A stretch of DNA of 58,514 nt, filler included, from Sluysia triapertura (taxonomy: Eukaryota): assembly GCA_046118255.1 (NCBI GenBank). It is 4 parts of 4 records of this genome, joined end to end, with 100 filler letters (N's around TTAATTAATTAA, not from the genome) between each part and the next. Parts side by side here need not be neighbours in the genome. Positions count along the whole stretch, not along the records: positions 1 to 13,625 come from JBJNIA010028611.1; positions 13,726 to 28,947 come from JBJNIA010234451.1; positions 29,048 to 45,546 come from JBJNIA010202707.1; positions 45,647 to 58,514 come from JBJNIA010066180.1. One strand, 5' to 3'. Position 1 is the first letter of the stretch. Every line of letters begins with the position of its first letter. Shown in pieces: positions 6,111-50,216 of the stretch. The notes below the pieces were generated by a model. It did no database searches. It saw only the letters and a list, made by a program, of their open reading frames with translations, and was not told the DNA's origin. Made by a program: the position numbers and the translations under genes.

Positions 6111-6237
6111 TGTTAGAACCCGGGACCTCCAGCTGCGCAGTTCGATGCTTTACCACTGAGCTATCAGCCCCGTCTAACAGTTTTATTTTAATACAGTCAA
6201 TATAACATCAGGGCACTTTAGGCCTTTTACCCCAACA
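6111..6237 (-). mobile_element. tRNA-bearing TGT...ACA element, copy 1 (internal deletion of the 3' tRNA half), TSD ATGA
   Basis: atga|tgttagaacccggg...gagctatcagccccgtctaaca...ggccttttaccccaaca|atga. Confidence 0.9.
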
Positions 6238-6422
6238 ATGATGTAAAAATATGCATCTGCTTTAGTATTTTAAGAGTAAATAATTTAAATGTTACTTTTG
6301 TAGTTTTAAAATTTAAATTTAAGTAAAAATTTAATAGAATCAAGTTTACATTATGTTTGCTATTATAGAAAATAAATTTAGCCGAATTCACATTGAACAA
6401 TTTAAAATTTCCGTTTGCAAAT

Positions 6423-6563
6423 TGTTGGGTTAAAAGGCCTAAAGTGTCATTTGGTAAAATTGAATATAATAAAATAAAATTGTTAGACATGGCTGATAGC
6501 TCAGTGGTATCAGCGATAGTCCCGGGTTCGATCCCCGGTCAGTCCATTTTACGAAGTCTAACA
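6423..6563 (+). mobile_element. tRNA-bearing TGT...ACA element, copy 2 (anticodon arm deleted), TSD AAAT
   Basis: aaat|tgttgggttaaaaggcctaaagtg...tgttagac..gctgatagctcagtgg...ggttcgatcccc...ttttacgaagtctaaca|aaat. Confidence 0.9.
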
Positions 6564-6849
6564 AAATGAAGAAAAAATAGAATAAGATTTATTCAGGTTA
6601 CATTGAGATATAATGATTAGTATTACAACTTATAAAAAGTTTATATTCTTTTAAGATAAGGTCTGTTTCTGGACACGCCAGCAGCACAGTAAGTTCACGA
6701 TTTCTTAAATAAAAATAATTAAAATCAAATAATTGCACATAAATTAAATTAAATCAATTTTGATATAAAATTGTTTGTAGGTACAACATGTTCTTTTGTT
6801 CGTATCATATTGATTCCATTTGATTCTTCAAATCTTAATGTTTTATGGA

Positions 6850-7811
6850 GTATATTTATCCGATCCATGGTAGTATTTGCAACTTTTACCAAAATTCCGG
6901 CATATTCCTAACTCATATTCTAGGAAACACACTGCGCTAAACGATGATGTGTAACGAAATTTGAATTCAAACTAATAAATGTTGGTGTAGTCACTTCTTT
7001 TATTTGCTTATTTGAATGGATAATTGCATTAAATTTATTCTTTTGTTTGCCTTTATTTAACAAATCTTGTTGATGTTTGAAAGTTAGGATTTCTTTGAGC
7101 AGCATAGTTACTCTTTCGAATTTAATTTGTAAGTAAACGACTTCAGTAACAAATTCGATTTTGGTCACATTACTTGCTGACTGAGAAAATGAGATAATTA
7201 CATCATCGTTTGTCGTTACATCATATAAATTAAAGCGAATACTTCTTCTAACAATTATGGGTTGGAAATTAAACTTCGGATCTAACTTATTTTTACTACA
7301 TAATGATTTAAATAACTGTCCAACATAAGAGATATTACTTATGGTAAATCTCCTCACAACACGGCAGACTCTAAATGTGATAATGTAAACTTTAGGTTCA
7401 CTTCATGTTCCTCTAAAGGTTTCTGCATAGACAAAAATATAACATTCAAAAGTTTGTTTATCGTTTCATTACAAATATTCTTAATAAAAGTATACGTATG
7501 ATTAATCATAACGGATCCACATTCAATTCGTTTTACTAAAATTGCATTAATTGCCAAATCCGATTGCACCGAAATTAAGATCATTGGTGACAAATTTTGA
7601 TGATGATAATAAATGTTTCAACTTTATTTGTGTTGATGAAGTTAATCCAGAACGGCTGTATCGCGAGTTTCTTTTTAATTTTTTGAACGATTTGAAAGCG
7701 AACAGTATTATTTCTAAAATAAGAACTTATAAATTTCAATTTTACAGTACAAAATAATTTCTGACATAACAAATAAATCCTTTTAAAAAGTTCAATTTTA
7801 TTAATCTGCAA
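6850..7811 (-). pseudogene. Frameshifted ORF chain ending in a CCCH-type zinc finger
   Basis: Overlapping minus ORFs 7811-7581, 7593-7354 and 7357-6920 continue after a frameshift as AVCFLEYELGICRNFGKSCKYYHGSDK (C-x8-C-x6-C-x3-H) at ~6935-6860. Confidence 0.5.
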
Positions 7812-9469
7812 AAAAACATTTTAATAAATAAATTATATTTATTGGATAATTATATTTAATTAAAAAAATACGTTTCCATATGGATGATTTTGTATCCACT
7901 GAGGTGTAGAATGGTTAAATTTTCCACTATTTATATTATTATATTATTTATTACTATTATATTAAAATAATAATGTATCACTATCATAATAGCAATAATG
8001 ATAATAATTCTTTTACAAACATTTCATATAATGAAAAGTTGATGTATAAATTCCTCACATATTGTTATCCATTGTTATAAAAATCATTAAGTACTACTAT
8101 TGACTCACCAAATAATACAATAATTGCTTTGTTATAAATTTATTTCAATTATATACTTTAGTATTGAAATAATAGAATCAATTTTAAACCAAAATGTGAT
8201 AAATTTATTATTATTGTTATTATTACTATTATGAAAACCACTTAAAAGTTAATGAATTTATAATGTCACAATATTTCTATTTTTTGAATGTATAAATGTC
8301 TTTATCATATTTCAATTTGTTCTGTCAACTTAACTATTTTCCAAATATTTTTGTCAAACATAAAAGCATTGTATTGTTTAATTTAATCCATTCTACAATC
8401 TACATGTCATATTTATCAATGACATTTTTATTATACCACTGGAAACGCACAGATTATTTCATTTGGAATATAATAAATCATTTTTGTGAATTAGTAAATA
8501 AAGGACGATTTTTATTGAAAGTTAAGTCTACAATCTATAAATAATAATAATCAAATAATTGATCTTGATTTATCAGCTATATTAATCCGAAAAATAAATT
8601 AGTTTCAATTGTTTCAATTAATTATTTGGAATACAGTTCAAATGGGACAACCCAAAGAAAATGTAATATGATTTCAGCCGAATTTCAATATTCTTTGGAG
8701 ATATTATTACTACTACAAGTTAGTTGTGTGATGGTCGAGTTATATTATTGTGATTAATTTTAATATTAAAAATTATAAATTTAATATTAAGAAAAATGGA
8801 CTTAAGGTCCTTATAGTTATAACGATTATGTAATTTAAAATCATCAAAGAAATTATTACTATTATTGAACTTCATATTACAAATTAAAATTTTAAAATTA
8901 CTTAAGAAATAATAACAAATGACAAGATTATATTCGATATTAACACTAAAAAGATCGTATTTGCAATGAGTATTAAAGTCTTTAACGTGATCATGCATCT
9001 CTGTCAACTCAAGTTCTGTAGAATCATAACGAACAAAAATTATAATAACCAACAGATAAGGATAAATACAACTTTATTTATTGTAAAATGAATAAATATA
9101 AAAATAAAACATAAATTGATCTTTGTATTATTTATTTATTGAAGTAAATAATCAAGTGTGTAGTCTTAATATTTTGTCAATTTCAAGATGTGTTGTGATA
9201 TAAAATATTTAAATTATATATTTTCTAGCTATACAAAATTTTAGTTTAGTAGAGCGATATCGGCGGATTGGAGTGATATAACGTGATAACTTATCATGAT
9301 CTAAATATGTTATATTCGAGTTAAGTTAAGAAATATTAATGTAATATGATTAAGGTGTGTTATATTTTAGGTGTTGTTATGTGTGCAAGATGTGGCGAGG
9401 GTCTACAGTGTATTGAATATTTGTGATTGCGTTTGTTAAAAGTTCGTGAGTGAGTTGAACACTACACAT

Positions 9470-10240
9470 TGATTTTTTGTTTTTCGCACCCAGTTTTCTT
9501 TTGGAAAATTTTAAACTTCTTATTCTCAAACAAACCACTCTATAAAGATTTCAAACTTATTTCTAGATTCTTCTCTTTCATAGCAATCATCTCATATTCA
9601 ATTCATGGTATTTGCATCATTATAAGTGTAAAAAGTTTAACATTGCATAATTAAGAATTAATTAATATCAGTTAAACCTTAACTTCATCTAAATGTCTTT
9701 TCAAAAAAAAACATAAACATTCAAACGTTATTCACAAGAAACTTACTTTTTCTTAAGTTAATTAAGATTTTAATATATTTTTATACTTAATCTCATTAAT
9801 GTTTATACGTTTTATTAAGGTTTTAAAGTTAATACGGCATTCAGGTAGCTATAGATTCCCTTTTATATTTCTTCACATTAAACTTTATTATTTTGAACAA
9901 TGACTTTATTTCTCAAATATTTTAAAGATTTTAAGTATCTATAAGGTTACTCAAAGATCCAAAAAGCTTATCAAGGTTTCAAGAATACTTAAAGATTCAT
10001 AAAGTCTCAACTAATCTCTAATGTCTTCAAAGGTTTTCCAAGTCCATTTCAAGTTTCCATAAAGCCTCAAACCTTTACACAGATCTTTCGAACTACAAGG
10101 TATTCTTTAGCTGTTAACATTATTATAGATGTTTTGATTTTCATGATTCTTATTCCAAAAATGTTCAATCCATCACAGTGTATCAGTTCTTCCTTCACTC
10201 GTTTCCTGATCCGCAGTTTGGCAATCCAAACATTTGCAAA
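9470..10240 (-). repeat. Long dispersed repeat family (decayed multi-exon gene-like), copy A
   Basis: Co-linear with 24040-24860, e.g. ttctagattct..catagcaatcatctcatattcaattca and caaggtattctt...ttttcatgattcttatt. Confidence 0.85.
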
Positions 10241-13625: not shown

Positions 13626-13725
13626 NNNNNNNNNNNNNNNNNNNNNNNNNNNNNNNNNNNNNNNNNNNNTTAATTAATTAANNNNNNNNNNNNNNNNNNN
13701 NNNNNNNNNNNNNNNNNNNNNNNNN
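13626..13725. other. Artificial scaffold spacer (44N-TTAATTAATTAA-44N)
   Basis: An identical 100-nt structure occurs three times; the 12-mer has stops in all six frames. Confidence 0.95.
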
Positions 13726-13798
13726 GTAGAGCAGTCGGACTGCGCAGACGATGGTCCCGGGTTCGATCCCCGGTCAGTCCATTTTACGAAGTCTAACA
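13726..13798 (+). mobile_element. tRNA-bearing element, copy 3 (5' part lost at the scaffold edge)
   Basis: gtagagc...ctgcgca...ggtcccgggttcgatccccggtcagtccattttacgaagtctaaca. Confidence 0.88.
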
Positions 13799-14867: not shown

Positions 14868-15600
14868 ATGTGTACAAGCCTACTCAAACGTTACACAAAA
14901 ACTGTACCGGTTGAATTTATGAAAATAATACAGATTAATGAAAATGCTAGGGATTTATCGCAGCAAATGGAATTAGAAATGGCGTCTGTAAATGTTACGT
15001 TACGCATGAAGTATAAAAATCCTTGGGAAAGTCATTGTAAAGAATTGAATAATTTGAAAACTTCTGATAACTTAATTTCTGCTTATTGTAAACAACCGTT
15101 GGAATTTAAAATTCAAAAAAGAGAGCTTATTGATTGGCATGATTTAGCTAAATTTGAAATGTTAACAGAAGATCTTGATATTGAATATCAAGATGATGTG
15201 GATTGTATGGCTACTTGTGAAAACCAATGTTTATCGGAATCATTCATCAGGACTTTTAAAGATAAAGTGTGTTGGAGTTCAGTCTCAGTATATCGAATTT
15301 TATCAGAATCTCCTATTCGCGATTTTAAAGTTAAAGCAAATTGGCGCAAAGTTTGTCGATTTCAAAGATTACCCTGTGGTTTCATCACAGAATTTGTTGA
15401 TTACGTATATTGGTCAAATGTCTCTTATTATCAGTATCTCGGTGAAGAATTTATTGCGAAGTATAATGATAAAGTTGAATGGAGTTATGCTTGTGAAAAA
15501 CGAATTTTATCAGAAGATTTTGTTGAGCGATTGAAGGATCGCATTAACTGGGATAATAGTGCAAGAAGTCAAACAGTTTCACAAGATTTTATAATCAAAG
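14868..15600 (+). CDS. Tryptophan-repeat protein (~7 x 23-aa repeats LSE.FI..F.DKV.W..V...Q.), resembling the entomopoxvirus tryptophan-repeat family; ORF reads on to 16271
   Basis: CLSESFIRTFKDKVCWSSVSVYR / ILSESPIRDFKVKANWRKVCRFQ / RLPCGFITEFVDYVYWSNVSYYQ / YLGEEFIAKYNDKVEWSYACEKR / ILSEDFVERLKDRINWDNSARSQ show strict 23-aa W periodicity at ~15126-15597. Confidence 0.75.
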
Positions 15601-15689
15601 GTTATGTCGAACTTATAATCTATTTTAGGTTACGCCTTAACGAAGACAATGAAATCAACTCTAACATAAGATTGATTTATGCTGATAAT

Positions 15690-15900
15690 TTAAATTATAC
15701 CAATGAAGCGATGATCCGCAAAGCAGCCTATATTAATTATGTTGTTCTACTAAATATAATCAAAATTCTCATGGGGTGCCGAGATCTTGCTAATGGCAGA
15801 ATTGCACGAACAGCTGAAGCGTCATTGATCCAACCAGGCTTTCAAGAACATGCATCCAAGAGAAGAAGAACCGTTGTAAAACCTATTGATCCAGCGAGTA
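15690..15900 (+). mobile_element. Possible RTE-clade LINE ORF2 C-terminal remnant
   Basis: YTNEAMIRKA...NGRIARTAEASLIQPGFQEHASKRRR resembles the RTE pattern TNEE..RR...GHIAR......GKRRRGRP; weak. Confidence 0.3.
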
Positions 15901-15939
15901 TCATACTTGACACATATGAAACGACTCTTTTAGTATTGG

Positions 15940-16330
15940 GTTATTGTAATATTATCGTGATTTGTTTATGCAAAGGTGCTTGTTTATATAAAACTTTTTA
16001 TTTTAATAAGTTGATCCTAGATCCATTTAGATTTTGTATTAATAGAATGTTCAGATCTTTTTATTTTAAGTCTCATTTTAGAATTGTCAATTCAAAATAT
16101 CCACAGTGCCTTAAGCACATATTTCATAATGCTAAACCGACATGCACTAAAAAGAAATTTGTAATAAATGTAAAAGACTTATTCATTAAAATTTTTAAAT
16201 ATAAATGTAGTGAACTTAAGATCGGACCTACCCTTATACAAATAATAGCCAATTCAGTAACAATCTTTTAAACATTTTATTGCCAACTACCAGCTTGATC
16301 ACTATATAAATTATCATTTAAATATAATCT
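15940..16330 (-). mobile_element. Possible CR1/Jockey-like LINE fragment (post-endonuclease linker)
   Basis: Minus-strand MRLKIKRSEHSINTKSKWI*DQLIKIK resembles the K.PWIT..L linker motif; many stops. Confidence 0.3.
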
Positions 16331-21948: not shown

Positions 21949-22081
21949 TGTTAGACTTCGAACCCGGGACCTCTTGCTGCGCAGTGCGATGCTGTACCAC
22001 TGAGCTATCAGCCCCGTGCAATAATTTCATTTTTATTATATTCTAGTATACTACATGAAACTTTAGGCCTGTATCCTTACA
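21949..22081 (-). mobile_element. tRNA-bearing element, copy 4 (subfamily B 5' end), TSD TTTT
   Basis: tttt|tgttagacttcgaacccggg...gagctatcagcccc...ctttaggcctgtatccttaca|tttt. Confidence 0.85.
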
Positions 22082-23109
22082 TTTTTAATGATTTATTGTC
22101 AATGCCGTCTAACAGCAATGAGATTGTAAACAACCTACTGTATATTGTAGTTTCATACTAAATTTTTTTGAAAAGCATAAACGAAAATAAATCTCAAAGA
22201 GAAATTTATTGTATAAAAATTACTAGACGATTATGAATACTAGATCGTAACAGCTACACAAATAATAAAAATGCTTATTGTTAATACACAAATTTAATAA
22301 TATTAAAAAAGTAAAGGGCAAGAAAAAAGTATATACAATATAAAAATACTGGAAAAATTCAAAATTCATCAAAACTATCTTTGGTATCAATGAAATAATG
22401 ACGGGGTGACATCTATATCAAGTGTTTTTTCCCAGAGCTAGTTTTATGGTCTTCATAGTGAATAACGGAGCATATTCTGGTTTGGTTAACTGAAGAAATG
22501 GAGTAATTTTTATGAGTGTTTGTATTGTTGATGCATTATGTTGATACCTTATGTTACATTGCATTCACTAGTGTGAGAGAGTAAGGAATAAAATTTAGGT
22601 CCAAAAATATCAAATAAGTATATTTTAACTGATATTGACGTTGCATTTAAATGTATCACTTTAAATTATATCTTGAAATTTGGTACTAACCATTGGATGG
22701 TTGTGATTATGATTTGAAGTATCCACCAATTCATCTTTAATCATTTCATTTGAATTATCATTATTGCTTTTTTAAAAAGATACTATAATTATTACCAGGC
22801 ATTAATTACATTTTACAATTAAATTGCTCTCGATACTTTTCAATTCTACATCTTTAATTGAAAAATCCAAAACCTATATCATTTGCTTCATGTCCCAATA
22901 AAATATGAAGCATCAGTAACTTTGATTGAATTTTCATGGTTTAATTATTTTGCCGTAATTTGAATAATAATCTATATATTTTCGAAACACACATGTTTGA
23001 TTAGCTTTACTGCTTTGTGTATTTTACTAACTGTTATTTTTAGTTTTGGATTATCTCTTTGGATTATTATTAGTTTTGGATTATTTTGTTGAAGCTTTCC
23101 CGTTGCTTC

Positions 23110-24860
23110 TTTGAAATTATTAGAAACAATAAATCAATATCAGCTCAATTTACTTAAATATAATCTCAATAAATTCAGTACTCATCAGATGAAGTATCAA
23201 TTATCACCAATTTTCTTATTTCAACAACGAAATTTATTCAACCCAAATATTACGTTCTTCAATTAAAAATTAATAACAATAACTCAATAATATAATAATT
23301 ACAAAATCAAATACAAATTGCTATTATAAGTCTCCGCTTTAACAATAATATGAGTGAACAAACTAAAAATGATTAAATCTCAAAATTAACAATAATTTTA
23401 TAACAATATTAATCTGTAGAAAGAAACAAGAGGTGACGCAACAAAAAATCAAAATAACAATATCTAAAAAGTTATAAATAATAATAATGTCTAAATATTT
23501 TCGAATAATTTTTTCTAATTTAATAACTGAAAGTTAAATTATTCGTGCAGTGAGCCTCCCAAAACATCAATGCATAAATATAATAATAAAAATATACTAA
23601 TAATAACAAAAGTCAACTAAAGATTCCCCAAAAGTTATTTTTTATAATAATTAAAATTAAAAATTAAAAACCTTCCACAGTCATGGATTTTGATAATAAT
23701 TGTTTATTTCCTGATAGTGAAATTGTGTTGTAAAATTTTTAAGTTTTTCATTTTATACTTTATCAGCATCCAATCAATTCTGAATTTCACAATCAAACAC
23801 TCTTTCACACAAATAATCAAAACCTCTTTGAGAACTAGAACAACTTTGACAATTACATGGTACGGTGTGTCAGACATAATTAGGTACAAAATACAAAAAA
23901 ATGATTTATTACCAACCATCATTTTATTTTATACTACTCAATCTATTTTTATTTAAATTACTTATCACATTAAAATAATAATCAACAATATTGTTAACGT
24001 GCATAAAAATAATTAATTTAATTTCACTTTTTAGAATTTAATTGATTTTCTATTTCAACTTTTCTAATGAAAAATGTTTAAAGTTCTTATTCTCAAACAA
24101 GCTATTCTACAAGCATTCCAAACTCACTTCTAGATTCTCCTTTCCCATAGCAATCATCTCATATTCAATTCAATACATTCAACATTCCGTAATTAAGAAT
24201 TAATTAAAATTTGAACTCTGTCAAACCATACCTTCACCGAAAAGTCTTTTTAAAATACATACAGATTTTCAAATTTAACATAGCATTCTACATTCAAAAG
24301 TTATTCACAAGAAACCAAGAAACGTACTTTTCTCAATTAAGTTAATTAAGATTTTAATTAATTAATCTATTTTGAGACTTCATCCTATTTTTTATTTAAA
24401 GGTTTTATTAAGGTTTTATAAGGCATTCAGGAGGCCCTATATGTTTTCATCTTCACCTCTCTGATTCCTTTTTCATATTAATTAATACCATACTATATTT
24501 ATTCTTAATACCAATAACAATGATTTTATTTCTCAGATATTTTAACGATGTTAATTACTTTATAAGATTACTAAACAATTTCAAATGCTAATCAATGTTT
24601 CAAGAATATTTAAAGATTAATAAAGTCTCAGATGATTTCAAAGTTGAATAGTTCAAAGATACCAAAATCTCTCAAGGGCCCACTCAAACCTCAACAAAGT
24701 CTTAACACCTTACAGGTTTTTGGAACTCCAAGGTATTCTTAAGTTTTTAATATTATTATAGGTATTTTCATTTTCATGATTCTTATTACAATGCTTATAA
24801 TGTTCAATCATTCACTTTGTTTCTCACTCATCCACAGTTGGACATCTCAACATCTCTGCT
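23110..24860 (-). repeat. Long dispersed repeat family, copy B (longest, ~1.75 kb)
   Basis: 23110-23860 matches 53310-54270; 24040-24860 matches 9470-10240; 24700-24850 matches 54270-54450. Confidence 0.85.
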
Positions 24861-26530: not shown

Positions 26531-26687
26531 TGTTAGACTTCGTAAAATGGACTGACCGGGGATCGAACCTGGGACCATCTTCTGCACAGTCGATGCTCTA
26601 CCATTGAGCTATCAGCCCCGTCTAACAATTTCATTTTTATTAAATTCAATTTTACCAAATGGCACTTTTAGGCCTTTTACCCCAACA
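26531..26687 (-). mobile_element. tRNA-bearing element, copy 5 (full length; no exact TSD)
   Basis: Complete consensus from tgttagacttcgtaaaatggactgacc to ggccttttaccccaaca; flanks atta/taat. Confidence 0.9.
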
Positions 26688-28015
26688 TAATAATGTGTAA
26701 TAATAATATAAATGTATAAAAATGAATTTCATCAGCATAATAATAACATAAACAGTATTGAATTTACATTACCACATAAATTTTGATCGATATATTATTT
26801 TGTTTTAATTGTTTATAAATTTTTATTGTAATTGTTTTATTTTATATTATTTTATAAAATTTAATATTAATTATTATAATAAAATTTTTAATTTGTATAA
26901 ATTAAATTAAATTTAAACTTAAATCATTAAATTAATAAGATCTTAAATATATCTTAAAAGGTAAATTAATTTTAAACGAATTTAATCAAATTTGAATAAT
27001 TATAAAGAAGCAATATGGCTACCAAAATTTCAGTATATTGGTACTTAAGTACTTAAAGTATAAATTAATTATCAGTAATTACCTTACTTTGATAATAATA
27101 ATTATTCATCCCAAAATTAAGTTTTTGAATATCAAATCAATAACGTAATTTTGATTATTTTATTTGTGTGTAATTAAAAACGTAACTTTGGTTATTTTAT
27201 TTGTGAATAATTAACTTTATATCTATTAATTTATCGGAATTTATTGGAAATTATATGAATTAATACTATTGATTAATTTTTGTGATTAAATTCGTTTTCA
27301 AATTTGTTTTATTTTGGAATTACAATAATAATGTAAGAATTTTTAATTTTAATTTTATTTTATAAGAATTTTATTTTATTAAAATTTAAAAAATTTTATT
27401 AAACTAATTTTACTAAAAATTTAAAATTTTTGTTTTAGTCTGACAAAAACTTTTCTAAAATCTTTTTATTCAAAACAAGATTTGTGTAGATGAAAAAAGG
27501 TCTTGCATAAACCAGAAGTATTCTTTTGGATCAAACTCAAAGGACAGTTTTATATAACATTTTATTTAGTAACGTTTGTTCGATTATTTATAAGTTTTCG
27601 ATATTTATTATTATATCATTTGTAAAATAAACTCAAAATCTCACATATTTAAAATTTGGATCTTTAAAGATCCGAGGAAAAATCTTTAATAAATTTAAAT
27701 CAGCATAATTAACAAATAAAAGTTAATTAAAGCAACATTTTATTTTATTATTATTAACATTTGTATAAATTTTTTCACTTTTGTATTCAATAAAGAAATA
27801 TTCGGATTATTATCTTTTTTAACTTAAATAGTTGTAAAATCTATTAAAATCTCATTAATTATTGCTTTCAAAAATCTAGAATTTAATTCTATAAAGTAAA
27901 TTTTCATTTATCGATTCCATATAAGGGAATCATTCGTAAAATATATAAATAAATTCAAATTATTTAGCACCTCAAATTAAAATTACTAAAATATCCACTT
28001 TCAGGCAATAGACAT

Positions 28016-28174
28016 TGTTAGACTTCGTAAAATGGACTGACCGGGGATCGAACCCGGGACCATTGAATGCGCAGTCGATGCTCTACCACTGAGCTATCAG
28101 CCCCATCTAGCAATTTCATTTTTATTAAATTCAGTTTTACCAAATGGCCCTTTTTTAAGCCTTTTACCCCAACA
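28016..28174 (-). mobile_element. tRNA-bearing element, copy 6 (full length), TSD ACAT
   Basis: acat|tgttagacttcg...ccttttaccccaaca|acat. Confidence 0.92.
28033..28103 (-). tRNA. tRNA-like Pol III unit inside the element (pseudo-tRNA; tRNA-Cys-like body, loop CTGCGCA)
   Basis: GGGCTGA TA GCTC AGTGGTA GAGC ATCGACTGCGCATTCAAT GGTC CCGGG TTCGATC CCCGG TCAGTCC A TTTT: acceptor, D and T stems pair, A and B boxes are intact and a T4 terminator follows; the anticodon arm is irregular. Confidence 0.6.
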
Positions 28175-28435
28175 ACATCATTAAAAACCTAATTTTTTTC
28201 ACTTATCTTAAAGAAATCCAACGGCTGGCCCCAACAGGTAAGTCTAGTACGTTGGTGGACTCACACACTGAACTTCTTTTATTCTACTTTTCACAATTTT
28301 TTAAATATATGTTAATACAAACTATTAGTATATATAAATCTATTTTATTTTGATTAATATTTATTGATTAATTTTTAAAACTAATAAAGGAATTATTATT
28401 TTGATTTAAATATAAAGTAAGTATTTGATTAAAAT

Positions 28436-28558
28436 TGTTAGACTTCATAACATGGATTGACCGGGGATCGAACCCGGTATCCCTCGCTGCGCAGTTCGAT
28501 GCTCTACCTTCTGAGCTATCAATTATACTACATAGCACTTTAGGCCTTTATCCAAACA
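28436..28558 (-). mobile_element. tRNA-bearing element, copy 7 (subfamily B, internal deletion), TSD AAAT
   Basis: aaat|tgttagacttcataacatgg...gcactttaggcctttatccaaaca|aaat. Confidence 0.88.
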
Positions 28559-28947: not shown

Positions 28948-29047
28948 NNNNNNNNNNNNNNNNNNNNNNNNNNNNNNNNNNNNNNNNNNNNTTAATTAAT
29001 TAANNNNNNNNNNNNNNNNNNNNNNNNNNNNNNNNNNNNNNNNNNNN
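28948..29047. other. Artificial scaffold spacer
   Basis: 44N-TTAATTAATTAA-44N. Confidence 0.95.
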
Positions 29048-29118: not shown

Positions 29119-30214
29119 ATGTTTTATGTTAAAGTTATTAATGCTAGAGATGATCAGAATAAAGTTAATTATGTTAATTATGTAAACTTTCAAGCATATG
29201 AAGATGAAGATCAGTATAACTTGTTTAACAATAGTAAAGATGATAATGTTCCAGTTACAAATGCTCAAGATGATCAGAATAAAGTTGATGATGTTAAATA
29301 TGTAATTGTAAGGATAAGTAAAACCTGACTGATAATAGTAAAGATGATAATGTTTCAGTTATAAATGCTAAAGATAAATATAACCTGATTGACAACGCTA
29401 AAGAAGACAATGTTCTAATTATTAATGTTAAAGTTGATCAGAAGAAAATTAATGGTGATAACTTCGAAAACTTTCGAGCATATAATTTTGAAGATCAGCA
29501 TAACGCGATTAGTAATAGTAGAAATGACGATTTCCAAAATAACAATGTCAAACATGACAGTGGCGAAGTCAGTTATGTCGAAGTCGAATATTACGAAGCT
29601 AACAATGATAACAAAGATAACAGTGTTGGAGATGATGTTACACAAACTAAGAAGAAGAAAGATATCAATGATCAAGTTCACAACAATAAAAAACATGATG
29701 ATTCCTTTTACTGCTACGAAGATAACATCCATAAACTCGAACATTACAAAGTTAATCTTTTCAATTTTTATAATATTTGTCTTTAGGAATTTTATGATTA
29801 TAAATTAATTGGTTTTATTTTCTTGATGATCATAATAATATTTATAGTAGTAATAAAAATAAATCTAAGGCTCATGAAATGTATAACAATAGTAATGATG
29901 ATTTTCGTTCACTTAATGATTATAAACGTGATGACTCTAGACTTAAAGATAATGAGCATGAGTATTACATGTTCAATAAACAAAAAATTACTCGTATAGC
30001 TGCCTTGTGTCCAGCTTCTACAGACAACAAAGGTGTTTGTTTAAGGGATGGAATGCTCTGTCATTACGCTCATTCTGTTAAAGAATTAACGATCACCAAA
30101 GAAGATGAAGCAACTTACAATAGACACTCACAAAGAATTTCAGAATTACTGAAAAGTATTACAGTATTACCACTTCATCTCGCAATATTTCAATGGACAA
30201 TAACATCAAGGTAA
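29119..30214 (+). pseudogene. D/N-rich repetitive ORF ending in an Unkempt-type CCCH zinc finger (few stops)
   Basis: Internal repeats (KDDNV.V.NA.DDQNKV) lead into CPASTDNKGVCLRDGMLCHYAHSVKEL (C-x9-C-x6-C-x3-H), resembling an Unkempt finger CIHETDARGHCVKNGLHCAFAHGPHDL. An inverted paralog lies at 39660-40330. Confidence 0.6.
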
Positions 30215-30881: not shown

Positions 30882-31015
30882 TGTTGGGGTAAAAAGGCCT
30901 AAAGTGCCATTTGGTAAAATTGACAATAATAAAATAAAACTGTTAGAAGGGACTGATAGCTCAGTGGTAGAGCATCGAACGGCGCAGCTAGAGGTCCATT
31001 TTATGAAGTCTAACA
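30882..31015 (+). mobile_element. tRNA-bearing element, copy 8 (T-arm deleted), TSD CTTA
   Basis: ctta|tgttggggtaaaaaggcctaaagtgcc...ttttatgaagtctaaca|ctta. Confidence 0.9.
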
Positions 31016-31799: not shown

Positions 31800-33093
31800 A
31801 AAAGTAAATAAATTTTCGAAAAAAGAATTTTCTAGAATTCTATGAGTTGATACCCATATATCTGAAGCTAAATCATAAATCATAAAGGCAGTTTACAAGT
31901 TGGAAATAACAATTTCTAGATTTTTACAGTGTGTTGAGGGCGAAAAATTACTTAACTCGAATACATTAATTGTATTTTTATTTTTTTTGAAACTTTTAAT
32001 AACAAAATTACAAACATTAATCAAAAACAAGTTATTTAATTTTAATTTTAAAATTACAAAAGAAATAGGCTTAAGGTCTGTAACAATTAACAAATTTAAA
32101 ACAATAACGAAGTATGGTCTTATACTGAAGTTGAAACATAGCAAATAAAGAAAAAGTATAAACACAATTATTAATAACCCTAGCAGTACTACAATCGACA
32201 TTCCTGCTTTTATTTCTGCATGATGATATAAAATATATGATAAAATAGATATTTTGTTTTCATGCTGATATCGTTAAAAAATGATTTAAACAAGTTAAAA
32301 TTTGAAAATGCTAATTCGCGATCATTAACAATTTTCTTAATAAGTTTTTCAGATACAATGTTCTTATCTACGAAACTATATACATAAACTAGTTTTGTAC
32401 ATTTTGTCAAATATCCTCTTATTATACATTCATATCGGCGAATAAAAGATTGAGTAATTATTAAATCGCCTTCCCTTACTGCTTGTGAAACATCAAAAGG
32501 GTTATAAGCAATTAATTTTTTAACAAATATCAAAGGCACATCTAAATTTTTCGTAATATCGTCTATATTTACAGACCACTTTTCTTCAAGCACATTGTTT
32601 ATTTGTAATGGCATCAATCTAAGATATGAAGAGTAAATTAAAATATTATTTATTAATTGTAAAATATTATCATGAATCAACATACTACTGACACATGATT
32701 CAGCAATCTTTAAATCAACTTCTGAAGTATTAGATAACACAAGTAACGAAACTTTATAGAAAATATTATTCATTAATTGTAAAATATCATAAATATCATA
32801 TTACTAGCACATGATTCAATAATCTTTAAGTCAACTTCTAAAGTATTAGATAACACGAGTAATGAAACTTTGTGATTTTGGGGTTCTATCTCTTCATAAA
32901 TTTCTTTTTCTAATTCATCAGGAGTTAAAACACCTTTACCATCTAATATATATGACAACTTTAACTTGTTACCACATATCAAAAGTTTTATTGTATCAAT
33001 ACAATTTTTTTCGCTTAATTTATTAATTGATGAGACTTCTTGCACTCTCTTAAAATCAGAGGCTAATATCTTAATTTCATCCAAAGTTTTCAT
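31800..33093 (-). pseudogene. UFL1: UFL1 (E3 UFM1-protein ligase 1) N-terminal part, disrupted, with an internal ~120-bp tandem duplication
   Basis: MKTLDEIKILASDFKRVQ..KLSEKNCID..LDGKGVLTPDELEKEI and IITQSFIRRYECIIRG match UFL1 (WEEIRRLAADFQRAQ..RLSERNCIE..LDGKEYITPAQISKEM; IFTEAFVARHKARIRG). The duplication is 32641-32758 / 32761-32872, with a probable ~54-nt intron near 32180-32126. Confidence 0.9.
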
Positions 33094-33226
33094 TTGAAGC
33101 TTTTAAACATCTTTTAAAAAAAATCAATATTGCCATCGTTTTATTAATTATATTTAATTAAATTCATTTTTGGTATTACTTAATAATGTATTTGAGAATG
33201 TGATCTGTAGTTAAATTTTTACCAAC

Positions 33227-34410
33227 TCATAAACGATGGCGGAAAAATAATGTCTGAATAAGTAAAAGTATAAAATCTTCTGATCTCTGCAAAATTGCTC
33301 TTTTATCCGATATTTCAATTTCAAGTTCACACAAATAATCATTAAGATCAAACTTATTAATGCATTTTACTAAAAATTCACTAGGACTTAAGCAACAAGC
33401 CATTTGCTGCAATAATTCTACGTTGCGACTAGACATTTCCATTCCAATATATACAGATTTCATTTGCTGAACCAAAATAGAAGGTATTGTTCCATTTTTA
33501 TTCCACATTTTCCCAACAACTTGACTAGCAAAAACTACTACTTGAAGAGCTTCATCGCATAAAAATGTATATGCACTTCGCTTAATTTATCTCGATAAAT
33601 TTTCTTGGTCAATAAAGATGTCATAAATCGATGTAACGGTTTAATAACACTAATATATACATTAGGCCAATTATTATATATCACAGTTCCTGTTTCTTGA
33701 AAGACAATTTCATCCTTTTTTAAATATTGAATATTCAAGTTAACAATTCGCTCGTAAAATATCTTAGACATTATATCAAATGTCTGCAACAAGTGTAATA
33801 ATATCAACTAAATGATATGAAATTTCAATTCCACTCTTCCAAGGTGAATCATGTTCAATATTCTGTGTCAATTCTCGTTTCATTGTATTAGTATTCTGTA
33901 TTAATGACAATGTATGACAAAATAAAGCATAAAATTCCAGAAAATTTTCGATAAATTGTTGTGAAATAGGTTTTGGTGAAAAATTTATAGCTGGTTCGTC
34001 ATTTTCTCCTATACCGGTAATATAGATGAGAATACTTCGTAGAATATACTTGATATCATAAATGACACGTAATTTTTGATTAAATGGATCGAATATATCA
34101 TCACGTTTATCATACTAAAGTATATTGGGATACTTTGGCAATGGTTTACTTTTTTCTTTTATGAAGTAGTGCAGTATAGTCATCAAATTTGTTAAGATAT
34201 TCTTTCTTTCTACTAAATGATACGCTAAACTGATATCAGTAAGTTAGCACGTATTTGAAATCATCGCATCTTCAGTATTATGATCATCTTCTATATATTG
34301 TTGCAAAAGATTTTTATAATTATCTAGAAGCAGATATGAAAATTCTTTCTTGAAGTATATTTCTTTAAACACAACATTAACAATAAACGCATTACACACT
34401 GATCTTGAAA
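33227..34410 (-). pseudogene. UBR1: UBR1/UBR2 N-end-rule E3 ligase internal fragment, disrupted
   Basis: KKEFSYLLLDNYKNLLQQYIEDDH, LAYHLVERKNIL, YDIKYIL, MKRELTQNIEHDSPW, ISVIKPLHRF and VFASQVVGKMWNKNG..MSSRNVELLQ match UBR1/2 ([76 protein letters not shown]). Frameshifts and stops are present. Confidence 0.88.
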
Positions 34411-34992: not shown

Positions 34993-35377
34993 TCAAATAT
35001 ATTGTGTAGTAGTAAAAAAAGAAAGATTGATAATAAGGATAAAAGAAATAATAATAATGATAACAATAACGTGGTTATTATGTTTATTAATACTGAATTG
35101 TTGATGTTGAAATTTATTATGAAAATTATTATAAAAGTTATTACTTGATAATCATATTATATAACAATAATGACTATAATTATTATATATTTTAATACGA
35201 TCTGAATTGTAATAATAATCGCGGTAGTTCATGATAATTAGGTGCGATGATCATGTTTGTCTTTTGAATGAGTTTAGTAGTCTGTGTATATGTGAAGTGT
35301 TTTTATGTGATGAAACGTGATGAATTTTGTGTGATGAATTCCCTACAATAATAATATAAAATAATTAGTAATTCCCC
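34993..35377 (-). repeat. ~400-bp leader repeat, copy 1 (upstream of the UBR/UFL1 cassette)
   Basis: The reverse complement aligns along its length with 43434-43840. Confidence 0.9.
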
Positions 35378-39659: not shown

Positions 39660-40330
39660 AGTTGAAAATAACTTAATAATAACTTGTTCACTGTTGTGAA
39701 AGGTTGATGATGATTATGATTGATGGATTATTGTTATTTTTAAAATTTAAATTTAAATTATTTTTGACTTTATAAAATTTAAAATTAACTTTTATTAAAA
39801 ATTCTTCATTAAAATTTTTTAGTTTCGAAGTAATTATCGTATCCTCGCCATACAGAAATTGAAAACAAAAACGTAAAGATTTATTTTTTAAAAATTTAAT
39901 TTTGATATTTGACTGCAATGTATGATACTTCTTGACGTTCCTCTTATAAATGAAAAATAATAATAATGATTGTTAACACACAATGAATAGAAGTAAATAT
40001 TATTTACCTTAACGTTGTCGTCTAATAAATTATTGCCGCCTGAAATGCTGGAAACAATTGTAATAATAATAATTGAATAATAATTCAGCAACTCTGTAAT
40101 TCGTTGCGAGTGTAAGTGGAAAGTTGTATGATTTTCTTTGCTGCTCTTTAACTCGTGAACAGAATGAGTGTAGCTGCAGTACAATCCATGCAATAAGCAG
40201 ATGCCAATATTATCAGTAAGAGTTGGACACATAGCAGCTGTATGAGTTAGTTTTCGTCTATTTAACATGCAATAATCGTGCTTCATTATCTCTACGTCGA
40301 GAGTCATTACAAAAATACTCGTTGCCATTG
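39660..40330 (-). pseudogene. Second copy of the Unkempt-type CCCH ORF and its downstream region
   Basis: DYCMLNRRKLTHTAAMCPTLTDNIGICLLHGLYCSYTHSVHELK..HSQRITELL versus EYYMFNKQKITRIAALCPASTDNKGVC..HSQRISELL; downstream YKVK..LNLNFKNN.N..IIIIIN.SQQ is shared. Confidence 0.75.
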
Positions 40331-42515
40331 ACGTATAGAAGTATGTTTAGAAGGTGATTTTACAATGTTGAGAATGTGGTTTAAATCGAATTGTTAAGAT
40401 TGAAAAATAAAATATTTTAGGTGAATTTTTTGATGTAACTTAATAGTTTTGAATGTAATGTGGTTTAGATGTTATGGGATTATGTGCTTAGTTGATTTAA
40501 ACGGATGAAGATGTTTTTAATGGATGTAAAAGAGATAAATATTGGAATGTTCAAATGTTTAAGAGTATGGTTTTATGTACAATGTTTTGATTTAGTTTAA
40601 TGTTGTTTCTATTGATTTTTGAATGTGATTTGTAGAGAATGATTATTAGGGAAATAAGTTGTTTACTTAACTTTGGCTTTATATGAATGCAAGGGTTCTT
40701 TCCTAAATAGAACCTACTTACAAAAGATTATCGTCTGGAGCTGAGTTCGGCTAATAAGACGGTTTACGTCACTAATTGACGACGGTCTAATGAGACTTAT
40801 AACGTAGCGAATTTAACAATGAAACACCTAACAAGATTTTTATGTTAGTTTATATTTCAAAAGACTGATAGCAATACAAGAAACAATTTAATTTCAGTTC
40901 GTAAATTGAGACAGCCTTTTTACAGTCTGTCAAATAAAAAATATTTTTTAAAGTTGAATCAGCCTTCTTACGGTCTGATTATAATCAATGGTTGATTTTA
41001 ATTTAGAGGATAAGGCGTAAATGAAACACTTATATTATATACAATTCCACACAAGTATACAAACAAGAAGAATATAAAACAATTATAATAGCGATAATAT
41101 TTTAAGTCTTAAGGACTTTTCCTTAGACTGTTTGATTTTAAGAATAAGATTAAGTGAGCCTTTTTAAGGTATGACAAATAAGAAAATATTTTAAGTCAAA
41201 GTTTAATGATCCTATTAATTAAAATTAGGATATGTTAAAACTTATTTATAAAAAAATTACTTTTGCATGGATAATAGGTTTTTTGGTTTCTAGAAAATTC
41301 ACTCCTAAAATTTAGAATCCTTCTTCTGTCATTTTACGCTGAAAATGATTAATATTTATATTAAATTTACCTCCCTCCATCTTGGATTTTAATATTTATT
41401 TACTTCAATAAAACAATTAATTTTTTTTCTAATACTTTCTTATTGAAAATAATGCTAAGTAATTTTTTTTAGTAATGATTTTATTAAAAATTTTACTAAA
41501 TATAATTATTAAAAAAATAAAAATTTTGTAATATATAATATTAATAACTAATTTATGAAACAAAATAAAATAGATAAATTTTAGTTAAATATAAATAAAA
41601 CAAATAAACAAATGAAATACTAAATTATCATTTTTGTTAAATATCAATTTCATTTTTATTCAATCACATAAATATCAATTTCAGTCGTCAATTCCAATCA
41701 CTTGTTGATCACTTGATGAATTGTCACTTGATGAATTGTTCCCACCCAACATGACTAATTTGTGCGTGATACTAATTATGAATAATTTATTACTTTTGAA
41801 GTTTTACTTGATAATAAGAAGAATAATAGTACTTTTAATAATTATTTCTAATATTTTAATTATATAATAATTTAATAATAATAATAAGAGTAATTATAAT
41901 ATTTCATTTAATAGCTATTTTCATTTAGTTACAAAATTACAAAAATAACTACAAAATTAAATTACAATATTTACATAATATTAAAAATTACACATAAAAT
42001 TAAAATGCATATTTACAATACGTAAAATCTAATTTATTTTAAATAAAATTTATTTGTTAATAAAAAATATTTTTTAATTTTTCGAAGAAAATTATTTTTG
42101 TGAACTATATTTAATTTGTTTTGAGAAATATTTTATTGTGATTTTTTAATCTTACTTACGTCACAACATTACTGATTTCAATATAAAACGTTATAATTTT
42201 GAATTAAAAAATATTATATATTACTCTAATATTGTAGATTACTGTAATAATGTACATTGAGACTTTTCCGATTTTGTAATTTTTGAATTTGAATACTAAA
42301 GACAGTGAAAAAACTACATCATTTTTAATTTTATTCGAATATTGTAATATTATGACATTATTATTTTTGCTTGTAAATGAGCTGTTATTACTTTTATAAT
42401 ACTTTTACTAATAAAGTATTAAAGAATTTTATCCCACACAGAAATATTTACCTTTTTTGATATAAGATCATTTTAGATCTTATATAATTTTCTAAAAAAA
42501 CTAATCTCGCTAACT

Positions 42516-43433: not shown

Positions 43434-43840
43434 TGGGAGTTGTAATATTTATTTTATTTTGTGTAGGGAAATCATCACATAAAATTCATCACATTTCATC
43501 ACATAAAAACACTCCACATGTACACGAACTATTAAACAAACTACTAAACTCATTTAAAAATAAACACTACCATCACATCTAACTATCATGAACTATCGTT
43601 ATTATTATTACGATTCATATCATATTAAAATATTTGTAAAAATTATAGTCATTATTGTTATATAATAAATATCGAATATTAACTTTTATAATATTTTTCA
43701 TAATAAAATTTCATAATAAATTCCAACAATTCTGTATTAATAACATAATAATAACATAATTGTTATCATTATTTCTTTTATCCTTATTATCAATCTATCT
43801 CTCTGTTGTTTTAATTTTTTTTTATACAACACAATATTTG
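43434..43840 (+). repeat. ~400-bp leader repeat, copy 2 (upstream of the ELAV/unc-13/RYK cassette)
   Basis: gtagggaaatcatcacataaaattcatcacatttcatcacataaaaacact... to tccttattatcaatct..acacaatatttg; inverted match to 34993-35377. Confidence 0.9.
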
Positions 43841-44069: not shown

Positions 44070-44226
44070 CCGATGTCAATTGAACTGGCTCACTATAAAG
44101 CAAATGAAGAATTAAAATACTTTCAAAAAAATGCTTAATGAACAAAAAAGAAAAAGAAAAACTGATAAATAATATAATTGAAGAACAACAAGCACTTTAT
44201 CAAAAACATCTTGAAAACGTCAAGAA

Positions 44227-45530
44227 ATGTCAGAAATTAAATCATTAAATCATTCTAAAATATTGGATTTAAATATTGGTTATGTTATTTTGCTGATTTG
44301 TATTTCTGCATTTATTGTTTTAGTTACAATTTCTACTGTTACTTTTATAGTGAAAGTTAATCATAATCGAAATTTGAAAAATCGAATACATGAACAATCG
44401 AAGTCTAACAGTAGTATATTTTCGAAATCCAATTCAAAATTAAAAGAATTAAAAAGTGTATCTTTGCTAAAAATGAAATCAACTCCAAAGTCTTCAAGTT
44501 CTTCATTAATAATGGGAATATATAAAATTCAAAGTCAAAAGTTCGCTTTATTTACCTTGTAATACAACGAATAATCAAATTCAATTATTTCAAAATTTTA
44601 ACACAAATCATTGTAGCGACAACAATAATGTTGATAATCATAAAGAAAATCATCAACGAATTTGGCATCATAAACGAACTCGACGTAAACACATTCGTAA
44701 AATAAGGCAACATGATTATTCGAGATATGATAGATTATTTCGGAATACTAAACAACGACATGGTACTAAGTCTATATTAGATCCGTTAATTGATAGAGAA
44801 AATTTTGATCAGAATGAAGATTTCCATGTTTCTGTTGGGCGACAAAATGGAAATAATAATGATCGTGATGATATTGATAGTTATATTACTATAAGTAGTA
44901 AAGATACTCATCAAACTGGAGCAACACGCCTCTAGTTCACAGACGTTTCAAAGATCCTTCAACAGTAATCAATGAAATTCAGATTCGCAGAAGTGATATT
45001 ACTCTCAGAAACATTATAGTCGAAGGTACATTTTGCCAAATGTATGAAGGTACAATGATAATGAAATCGGGAAGAAGACAGAAAATGCAAAATGTACTTA
45101 TAAAAACATTATCAGACAATTCAAATGAAGATCAAGTTAAAGTATTACTTCGAGATGGAGTATTAATGGCAGCTTTACGTCATCGTTATTTATGTCGTTT
45201 GTTAAAAGCAGCTCCGTCAGTTTACTTCAAATCACAATTAATACAACCTCCATAGCAGAATTTCTCATCAAACCGTGTAACAATTATAATCAAAATTTAC
45301 CAAGCTTCAATTAACATTCTAGTGGATGTTTGAATTTAACCTTAACCTTATGCAATTTAAATACAAAGAAATTACAAATTTAAAACAATATCTACGACAA
45401 GCTTCTACTAATTATGGTTTCAACAATAACTTGACTATCGCGCATCCAACACAGCTTTTTAGTAGAGAACTGATCAAAACAGCTATTACTAGTCCAAATT
45501 ACCAATAACGATTACAAATAATGTTTTCTA
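44227..45530 (+). pseudogene. RYK: RYK/Derailed receptor pseudokinase fragment (TM helix + start of kinase domain), disrupted and truncated at the scaffold end
   Basis: TM segment IGYVILLICISAFIVLVTISTVTFIV; EIQIRRSDITLRNIIVEGTFCQMYEG, VLIKTLSDNSNEDQVKVLLRDG..LRHRYL and NLKQYLRQ match RYK (IAISRERITLKDVLQEGTFGRIFHG; FVKTVKDQASEIQVTMML..LHHRNL; NLKLFLRQ). Confidence 0.82.
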
Positions 45531-45546: not shown

Positions 45547-45646
45547 NNNNNNNNNNNNNNNNNNNNNNNNNNNNNNNNNNNNNNNNNNNNTTAATTAATT
45601 AANNNNNNNNNNNNNNNNNNNNNNNNNNNNNNNNNNNNNNNNNNNN
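45547..45646. other. Artificial scaffold spacer
   Basis: 44N-TTAATTAATTAA-44N. Confidence 0.95.

Positions 45647-47106: not shown

Positions 47107-47152
<46 letters not shown>
47106..47152. repeat. (AAT)n microsatellite
   Basis: Directly visible. Confidence 0.95.
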
Positions 47153-47155
<3 letters not shown>

Positions 47156-48262: not shown

Positions 48263-48299
48263 TTATTTTCTATTTCAAGTAATTGTAGTCGATTTTACT

Positions 48300-48618
48300 A
48301 TTAATAATAATATATTAATTTATAATGCGCTCACATATACTGCTTAAGTACTCAGAAGAGCTTAAGTTATATTTCTGAAACAGAGAGAACTTTGCCTTTT
48401 TCTTAAATATTTCATAATCTTCCAGTAATTTGACATTCTCTGGTTATCACTGTGGATTCCGTCTGAATGAAATATTCATCGTGCTTTCCAATTTTTTATC
48501 ATTTCTAAAAGGTATTCAGGACTTCCGTAATGTAAGCATTTGTAAATTATTGTCATGATTTTGAATTCTATTGTTGTTTTTATTGGCAACCAGTGTAATT
48601 CCTTAAGATAAGGTATAG
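48300..48618 (-). mobile_element. L2 LINE 3' end, second copy (in an unc-13 intron)
   Basis: Near-identical to 18860-19155 (PYLKELHWLPIK..IEFKIMTIIYK). Confidence 0.88.
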
Positions 48619-48759
48619 TATAAAAACGGTTAGGACAAGGAAATTAATAATTAGAGCTTATTATTAATAATAAGTAGTATATTTTTGTAAAAATTTTAGA
48701 GTTATTTATTAATTAATTTAAATAAATTAAGAAACGTTTTACAAAATACGTTTAGATTG

Positions 48760-49520
48760 AAGAGATTGAAGTAGTATTTTCAGAACGATAAAGAGTACTA
48801 TTGAAATATAGAATTCATTAATAAAACACAGAACAATGTTTTAATAAATAATAATGTTTGATTGAATAATGGGATAAGAAGGATAGTGTATAAAATTAAG
48901 TATGCTTTTAATTTTCCATTCATTGGAAAAGTACAATGATGTAGTTAAATCGAAATTTGTAAGTTTCATTTCTGTTTCGTAAAAATGACTAATATCATTT
49001 GAAGTACGAAGTAAACGGTATTGTTCTTTATTTTTAAAATATACTCATGAAAATATATTCATAATTCATTTTTTAATATTACATGGTCTCTGTAGATGTT
49101 GTTGGAGGATTCCAGGGCTAGTTTCGTACACTCCTTTATCAGTGATTTGATTTCGCTCACAGGGAATCCAAGTTTGCGATCACTCTATGATCCTAAGGCT
49201 CCAACAACGACGCTTCATCTGAGATTGCAGCTTGTCCAGGAGATCCGTGTATTTTTCAATGTTTATAGTCATTTTCTCAGTATTTTGTTATGTCTCACAG
49301 TTCTGGAAATACCCACTGTCTAACAATTTTATTTTAGTACAGTCAATTATATTACTTGGAAATTTAAGCTTGTATCCCAACAGATTTATTTCAATCACAA
49401 AGCCGAATAATGATAATTGGGAAGAATTTATTTCAAATTCTATCCTAAATTTAAGTCCCATTGAGACTAAAATTATTATTTTCATTTCGAATATCAAAAT
49501 TTTAATGTTAGTAAGAATGT
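48760..49520 (-). mobile_element. Possible Penelope-like element RT C-terminal remnant, interrupted by the 49100-49325 insert
   Basis: GLKFRIEFEINSSQLSLFGFVIEI resembles the PLE motif LKFT.E.E....L.FLD..I; QYRLLRTSNDISHFYETEMKL resembles the downstream R..R..S....F motif. Confidence 0.35.
49100..49325 (+). mobile_element. 226-bp insert with TGTTGG...GTCTAACA ends (same termini as the tRNA element) but no tRNA
   Basis: atgt|tgttggagg ... actgtctaaca|attt (4-bp TSD with one mismatch); GC content higher than the flanks. Confidence 0.5.
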
Positions 49521-50064
49521 GATTTGCCCTAAATATATCAAAAAAATAATAAGCAAATAACATTAAAATGATCAAGACTCACTACATAAAGATTGTTAAA
49601 GATTCTTCGTAATACCACCGAATTTGTCTTTTATATTTGTAATTCCACTAAATCAGCACTAAGATGTCTAACTAAATTTAATCAGAACTTAAATAAAGCA
49701 GGATAACTTATTAACACTATTTATACTTATTAACACTGTGTATACCTATTTCGACCAAAAAGTGTGTCTATTTAGATCTGTAGGATGATCTGAAGGAAAA
49801 TTATACCGCTAAATAAAATGGACAAAACATGAATTGAGAAAAAAATGGCTAAACACTTAGAAAATAATGACATTATGACCTTTTTTAATGATCAGATTTT
49901 TCGATGCAATCATCGTCTTGGAAGCCGTGATGCTGATAAATCGGCGTAAGAATAATGATGAAATTTTGTATACAACTTTGCTGTTAAATGTATATAATGT
50001 ATATAATTCTTTATTAAGAACTAAATTTATTATCAGATTAAGACAAACGACGTGGTTTTCTTTC

Positions 50065-50216
50065 TGTTTGGATATAGGCCTAAAGTGACATAAAATAATG
50101 TTAGTTTAATTAACTATATTAAAACAAAATTGTTAGACAGGGCTGATAGCTCAGTGGTCAGAGCAAGTGAGAGGTGCTGGGTTCGATTCCCGATCAGTTC
50201 ATTTTGTGAACCCACA
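50065..50216 (+). mobile_element. tRNA-bearing element, copy 9 (diverged, subfamily B), TSD TTTC/TATC
   Basis: tgtttggatataggcctaaagtg...tgttagacagggctgatagctcagtgg...gggttcgattcccgatcagttcattttgtgaacccaca. Confidence 0.8.

Follow-up and report, generated by a model that had tools for sequence, protein, structure and literature searches.

Dispersed tRNA-bearing repeats in Sluysia triapertura as probable solo long terminal repeats of a Helenus-type miniature retrotransposon

What kind of mobile element carries a tRNA-like unit between ends of the integrase type and duplicates 4 bp of its target? The question is raised by a stretch of 58,514 nucleotides from Sluysia triapertura (GenBank assembly GCA_046118255.1; parts of four records joined end to end, hereafter "the window"), in which a repeat of about 155 bp with TGT...ACA ends is scattered on both strands. 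An original prediction, made from the bare sequence, had described nine copies as a tRNA-carrying mobile element rather than a short interspersed nuclear element (SINE), and had proposed either a tRNA analogue of the Cassandra long terminal repeat (LTR) or a Ginger-type miniature inverted-repeat transposable element (MITE). Our analysis indicates that the repeats are probably solo LTRs of a Helenus-type TRIM (terminal-repeat retrotransposon in miniature), that is, a new family of a known kind. Its direct support comes from dispersed copies, fixed ends, a 4-bp target site duplication (TSD), one empty site and the conservation of the promoter boxes.

All nine predicted copies lie at the coordinates given for them, and a BLASTN search with these nine against the window added a degraded tenth, which brings the density to ten copies in 58.5 kb, or about one per 6 kb. 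The nine are 76-96% alike in pairwise comparison and show at least two types of 5' end. Copies are named below by their first coordinate.

6111 to 6237, minus strand: LTR-like copy with a 29-bp deletion in its 3' half; 4-bp TSD ATGA (read on the plus strand) within a CAT run.
6423 to 6563, plus strand: LTR-like copy with part of the anticodon arm deleted; TSD AAAT.
13726 to 13798, plus strand: 3' half of a copy only, the 5' part being lost at the gap 13626-13725; TSD not evaluable.
21949 to 22081, minus strand: LTR-like copy with the second type of 5' end and a 23-bp deletion; TSD TTTT on the plus strand (an A run).
26531 to 26687, minus strand: full-length copy of 157 bp, without a TSD; the reference for the sub-parts.
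28016 to 28174, minus strand: full-length copy of 159 bp; TSD ACAT on the plus strand (28012-28015 and 28175-28178); empty site in two contigs.
28436 to 28558, minus strand: copy with the second type of 5' end and a 33-bp deletion; TSD AAAT on the plus strand.
30882 to 31015, plus strand: copy with a 23-bp deletion that removes the B box; TSD CTTA.
49286 to 49382, minus strand: degraded tenth copy, with the 5' arm and an inner 8-mer recognisable at 49316-49382 and the tRNA part mostly gone; its 3' end is tentative and it has no exact TSD.
50065 to 50216, plus strand: near-full copy, the most diverged, with a variant 3' end; TSD with one mismatch.

Each of the 100-base gaps between the joined parts (13626-13725, 28948-29047 and 45547-45646) contains a central 12-base linker with a stop in all frames, and the first of them truncates copy 13726. 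TGT at the start and ACA at the end are found in every one of the eight copies whose two ends are visible. The longer termini of the prediction hold overall; they fail at copy 21949, which starts TGTAAGG, and at copy 50065, which ends CCCACA. Two copies (157 and 159 bp) are undeleted, and six of the nine have internal deletions of 10-33 bp.

The flanks say more about how these units arrived. Six of the eight evaluable copies are bounded by exact 4-bp TSDs (ATGA, AAAT, TTTT, ACAT, AAAT and CTTA), copy 50065 has one mismatch and copy 26531 has none, just as had been predicted. Given a null rate per site of 0.011 window-wide and at most 0.026 locally, the probability of six or more exact matches in eight is below 1e-8. 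When the two sites of low complexity are left out (the CAT run at 6111 and the A run at 21949), four of six remain, with P=6e-6. Exact flanking duplications of 5-10 bp occur at none of the eight copies.

An empty site for copy 28016 was found in Logan contigs of the public run X1, the only run among the matches listed, which included no RNA run and have no bearing on expression. In unique sequence X1 agrees with the window almost to the letter and possibly stems from the same material; it does not, then, represent an independent population sample. Two X1 contigs join position 28011 to position 28175, skipping 163 bases, and four letters fit either side; the skipped bases correspond to the 159-bp copy together with a single ACAT target. 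The depth at this junction sums to 198, compared with 9-21 for single-copy contigs, which suggests that the flank of copy 28016 belongs to a repeat whose other copies lack the insertion. Depths of X1 contigs do not equal copy numbers, and contig mapping is dominated by the repeat at about 23.7-24.8 kb. A single 212-bp X1 contig also spans copy 28436 and both its flanks with zero differences, which shows this copy to be genuinely single rather than two copies collapsed into one.

These observations bear directly on the explanation that a tRNA-like repeat most readily invites, namely a tRNA-derived SINE, or tRNA pseudogenes whose flanks were duplicated by chance. The tRNA-like head, its A and B boxes, the T run behind it and the AT-rich flanks would all suit such an origin, yet none of the eight copies begins at the tRNA, and none has an A tail behind its fixed 3' end. 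Exact duplications were found at 4 bp (six of eight copies) but at no length from 5 to 10 bp, and the empty site gives a duplication of exactly 4 bp. The SINE reading is excluded for the window copies, and we consider this explanation as a whole very improbable. The prediction's central claim (no SINE, integrase-type ends and a fixed 4-bp TSD) is thus borne out by the ends, the TSD statistics and the empty site.

What, then, lies between the ends? The full-length copy at 26531 divides, in the order of the element, into the following parts.

26628 to 26687, minus strand: 5' arm (putative U3, or unique 3', region of an LTR) of 60 bp, AT-rich, its sense strand without a run of four T.
26620 to 26627, minus strand: inner 8-mer TGTTAGAC, the exact reverse complement of the element's last 8 bases.
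26548 to 26618, minus strand: tRNA-like unit of 71 nt (putative R, or repeat, region and RNA polymerase III (Pol III) promoter), with the A box at about 26611-26601 and the B box at about 26569-26559.
26544 to 26547, minus strand: TTTT directly 3' of the tRNA-like unit, a putative Pol III terminator.
26531 to 26543, minus strand: 13-bp tail ending in ACA, the putative U5 (unique 5') region and integrase attachment site.

The tRNA-like nature of the central unit, which the prediction had recognised, is supported by the Rfam tRNA model, with three of the nine copies above the gathering score (45 bits for copy 26531) and a fourth just under it, and by ARAGORN, which calls a tRNA in two of the nine, one of them with an unreadable anticodon. 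The box motifs of the Helenus type (TRGCY, YGG and GGTTC) are present. Across the copies, 30 of 31 cells are paired in the acceptor stem, 28 of 30 in the T stem and 26 of 28 in the D stem, with no compensatory changes in any of the three. Variation is greatest in the anticodon arm, where pairwise identity is 63%; the acceptor/A-box part reaches 95% and the T arm 88%. A strict test of the extracted segment found a perfect 3-bp stem with a 7-nt loop in none of the seven copies that have this arm. Variants common to two or more copies are found in 0 of 40 columns of the A/B-box arms, 5 of 16 columns of the anticodon arm and 10 of 39 columns of the 5' arm (Fisher p=0.001 for the box arms against the anticodon arm and p=0.0004 against the 5' arm, in tests on alignment columns that are not independent and with an anticodon arm that aligns poorly). 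Since the box-arm columns hold no shared variants, the master copies appear to have preserved the promoter as changes accumulated in the decoding arm; this pattern points to a promoter selected in the master copies and to a Pol III transcript as the probable propagating form.

Upstream of the tRNA-like unit each of the eight copies with both ends carries about 60-70 bp (33 bp in the deleted copy 28436), and the sense strand of this arm has no TTTT in any of the nine copies, a weak observation in that the copies are related and 38% of random 69-mers also have none. The outer ends are perfectly inverted over 3-4 bp only, with 5-6 of 10 positions matching, a shortness that is typical of LTRs. A feature absent from the original prediction is the inner 8-mer, which agrees with the reverse complement of the 3' end at 8 of 8 positions in copies 6423 and 26531 and at 7 in copy 30882. 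An ACG direct repeat brackets the tRNA and its T run, and without this insert the two sides would form an 8-bp stem with a three-base loop; the bracket may be the trace of a tRNA or SINE that entered an older end; a search of the window for a tRNA-less form of the inner unit found none. A lone inner 8-mer at 22107-22114 (minus strand), 33 bases upstream of copy 21949, is probably due to chance, as is a 12-base stretch at 44399-44410 (plus strand) that matches the 3' end of the element and lies within the RYK frame described below.

Could a DNA transposon have spread such a unit? Under this explanation the repeat would be a single-unit, MITE-like element moved by an integrase-related DDE transposase acting on very short ends, with the tRNA-like unit as captured cargo. 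It would account for the fact that all eight fully visible copies are single and that copies are dense, and TGT...ACA ends with 4-bp TSDs are described for Ginger and IS481EU elements. The six internal deletions all spare both ends (P of about 0.12 under random placement, not significant), and their microhomology (12 bases over six junctions) exceeds that of random placement (P=0.009), as gap repair can yield; deletions of this kind may equally come from reverse transcription or later repair. The ends themselves fit poorly. Ginger1 and Ginger2/Tdd (Bao, Kapitonov and Jurka, 2010; PMC2836005) share TGT...ACA, the 4-bp TSD and integrase-type chemistry with the window element, but Ginger1 is described with terminal inverted repeats (TIRs) of about 40-270 bp and CCGG/CCGT targets, and Ginger2 with TIRs of about 50-180 bp (52 bp in a non-autonomous form) and a preference for RTATAY, as against perfect terminal repeats of 3-4 bp here. 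None of the six window TSD targets is CCGG or CCGT, and none has the TATA core of RTATAY. PMC2836005 does not use the word tRNA. GingerRoot elements are reported to have 6-bp TSDs and TIRs of 100-150 bp (PMC6839031), and IS481EU is reported from parabasalids only (PMC10045372). Captured cargo would, moreover, hardly keep its A and B boxes free of variants beside drifting arms. We therefore regard a MITE as unlikely, and the Ginger alternative of the prediction does not stand.

A solo LTR of a Helenus-type TRIM remains the reading that accounts best for the whole unit, and a course of events can be proposed for it. Pol III would start within the 5' LTR of a master with two LTRs, at the tRNA-like A and B boxes, occasionally read through the first TTTT and continue into a short internal part with a primer binding site (PBS) as well as a polypurine tract (PPT). 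Passing through the second LTR's 5' arm, which has no run of four T, the transcript would then end at the TTTT of that LTR. Reverse transcriptase and integrase would be provided in trans by an autonomous Ty3/gypsy element, and the integrase would insert the complementary DNA by its TGT/ACA ends, giving rise to the 4-bp duplication. Recombination between the two LTRs would finally leave one LTR between the original duplications. Of these steps, transcription by Pol III, the existence of a two-LTR master, help from a gypsy element and recombination between LTRs are inferred.

Several results weigh against this course of events. No two-LTR copy with a PBS and PPT, the arrangement by which a TRIM is defined, was found among the eight fully flanked copies of the window. 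A TGG within six bases behind the 3' end, as a PBS-like start, is found at none of the nine copies, and a G-rich purine tract ahead of the 5' end at none of the eight with a visible flank. No neighbouring copies in the window are paired under one TSD; copies 28436 and 28016, 83% alike, each have their own. Pfam matches to 128 of the 129 window frames of at least 58 amino acids include no integrase, transposase or reverse transcriptase. Among the 15 of 647 X1 joints that were listed there is no 3'-to-5' junction of high depth, and among the 6 of about 2996 loose ends listed none lies at an element end. Exact-motif searches of the Helenus consensuses listed in Data S1 of PMC10886601, which are not alignments and in which line breaks can hide matches, gave no match for three diagnostic motifs; other motifs gave single unrelated matches or generic tRNA-box matches. 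How telling the lack of full elements is can be gauged from the LTR and internal counts in Table S3 of the same paper (10 of 11 animal rows, a row with more internal parts than LTRs being left out; the counts are of young copies, and the window copies are old). At the rates of seven of the ten animal Helenus families, finding no full element among eight loci has a probability of at least 0.1 (0.10-0.44); at the rates of the other three it is at most 0.013.

Candidate pairs did not survive scrutiny. When 28016 with 26531, or 28436 with 28016, are taken as the two LTRs of one element, the outer flanks lack an exact match, and copy 28016 is ruled out as half of an LTR pair by its own TSD and empty site. 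PBS-like (three) and PPT-like (two) motifs occur elsewhere in the window, none of them touching a copy. X1 joints into element ends at 26888, 25453 and 28418 lead to AT-rich, flank-like letters and were set aside. Two kinds of X1 junction deserve mention. Four contigs, with a summed depth of 64.5, run from a 3' end to a 5' start over a spacer whose length the contigs do not give; a two-LTR copy would give such a junction, and so, equally, would neighbouring solos. One further contig (depth 81) joins 26631 to 28436, the element's 3' end being followed by the inner unit with four bases preceding it, as might result if one element had inserted into another directly ahead of the inner 8-mer, or from a tandem form without the 5' arm.

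These junctions are also what an LTR-only retroelement might leave behind. Such an element would consist of a single LTR-like unit that is transcribed by Pol III and becomes an integrase substrate without any PBS/PPT part, for instance as head-to-tail units. Only single units are seen here, and the conservation of the promoter would still imply an RNA step; pairing of the inner 8-mer with the 3' end is possible and would close the tRNA fold (45 of 51 cells are paired, and a fold was computed for copy 26531). The closing stem, however, shows no compensatory change, the fold of the inner unit is no better than that of shuffled sequences (z -0.8, two copies), and the junctions, which lie near single-copy depth, are also expected of neighbouring insertions. 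A Pol III transcript of one unit would, besides, omit the 60-bp 5' arm, so that a tandem or circular template must be assumed, and families known as solos only are already classed as Helenus in PMC10886601. On balance we find an LTR-only element quite unlikely, and give just as little credence to a more elaborate version of it in which the element shed its PBS/PPT part, spread as a lone tRNA-bearing LTR, driven by Pol III and inserted by integrase, in the manner and at the density of a SINE, and had both ends rebuilt with the help of the inverted inner 8-mer and of templates in tandem or circular form. Solo LTRs of a Helenus-type family thus remain the probable answer.

The surroundings of the copies are AT-rich, with a GC (guanine plus cytosine) fraction of about 0.20-0.30 (about 25%), and contain several gene pieces.

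44215 to 45255, plus strand: RYK-like receptor tyrosine kinase in three consecutive frames, stopping before the gap at 45547 (best solved-structure match RYK, E=4.5e-8).
32213 to 33102, minus strand: UFL1 gene (Pfam), split over two frames, both of which cover profile positions 70-94.
33227 to 34114, minus strand: pieces of a UBR1-like E3 ligase, immediately upstream of UFL1 (E=7e-4 for the one piece tested).

Together, the RYK-like, UFL1 and UBR1-like pieces indicate an animal host; a homologue search with a fragment of UFL1 returned no match. The frame overlap in UFL1 is due to a 116-bp tandem duplication (32640-32755 and 32760-32871; 86% alike), which is either a real disruption or an assembly fault. 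Frames resembling the CCCH zinc-finger protein UNK lie at 29804-30214 (plus strand) and 39888-40346 (minus strand), within an inverted duplication of about 620 bp that is 70% alike. A 467-amino-acid frame at 14868-16271 (plus strand) has repeated tryptophan-containing units in its first half and no significant Pfam match. There is also a non-coding pair of 350-bp repeats (35020-35360 and 43448-43800) in opposite orientation, 81% alike and without obvious TG/CA ends. The window contains a second very abundant repeat at 23100-24820, with a summed X1 contig depth of up to 5.7e5, no Pfam match and diverged copies (67-75% alike) at 9494-10184 and 53289-54362.

If it is of the Helenus type, the element represents an additional, unusually dense family from a fast-evolving, AT-rich animal. 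Copies of this sort raise the number of tRNA genes counted (as the two ARAGORN calls in the window illustrate) and are apt to be mislabelled as SINEs. Pol III transcription of Helenus elements is still a prediction in PMC10886601, and a high-copy family would make a practical test case. A larger result would follow only if the full genome held zero two-LTR copies.

How does the element compare with systems already described? The prediction's analogy with the Cassandra LTR fits, though the novelty it implied does not, as the class was published in 2024 under the name Helenus (Kojima, 2024; PMC10886601). In a literature search, with Repbase and Dfam outside its scope, tRNA-bearing elements with a 4-bp TSD were found only in that paper and in papers citing it, and a 2026 meeting report (PMC12859917) does no more than cite Helenus. 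Exact-pattern scans for the window element returned nothing in metagenome contigs and nothing in viral contigs. Cassandra and Ajax, TRIMs also treated in PMC10886601, resemble the window element in having a predicted Pol III promoter inside a non-coding miniature LTR; theirs is derived from 5S rRNA, whereas the window element has A and B boxes of the tRNA type, and Ajax is given a 5-bp rather than a 4-bp TSD. With tRNA-derived SINEs (SINE2) it has in common a tRNA-derived promoter in a short, abundant, non-coding interspersed repeat, and differs in reaching 60-70 bp upstream of the tRNA, in its fixed TGT/ACA ends and 4-bp TSD, and in having no tail.

Helenus elements (also called TRIMp3) are described as TRIMs in which each LTR has a tRNA-like sequence and the stretch between the LTRs has a PBS and PPT; their TSDs are 4 bp long in animals, 5 bp in fungi and a plant. 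Their box motifs are conserved and the tRNA body is mostly non-functional. Animal Helenus families are reported from six phyla, are inferred there to ride on Gypsy elements and have LTRs of 104-323 bp, with frequent solo LTRs; some families are known solely as solo LTRs, and eight animal rows of Table S1 have no determined internal part. The paper proposes an origin by insertion of a SINE into an LTR, which the ACG repeat around the tRNA and T run may reflect. Sugar-beet TRIMs reach solo-to-full ratios of up to 111, and many of their solos are described as lacking a TSD (PMC13570524), with which the TSD-less copy 26531 is consistent.

The window element stands apart from the Helenus descriptions in its high density, in having no two-LTR copy, PBS or PPT in the window and no motif match to the consensus set, and in the inner 8-bp inverted copy of its 3' end just before the tRNA unit, a feature for which the published consensuses were not surveyed. 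With animal Helenus (for example Helenus-2_TeGr, Helenus-4_CVi, Helenus-1_LAn and ULTR-1_NVi) it shares LTR size, TGT...ACA ends and the 4-bp TSD, along with conserved A and B boxes, a degenerate anticodon arm, a T run, a short tail, short terminal repeats and solo copies, a match of layout that was judged by eye. Its kinship to Helenus would accordingly be one of design and not of sequence. Because every Helenus feature that can be decided is present (a tRNA-like unit within a TG...CA unit, the box motifs, the 4-bp TSD and the LTR length), we file the element as a probable new Helenus family.

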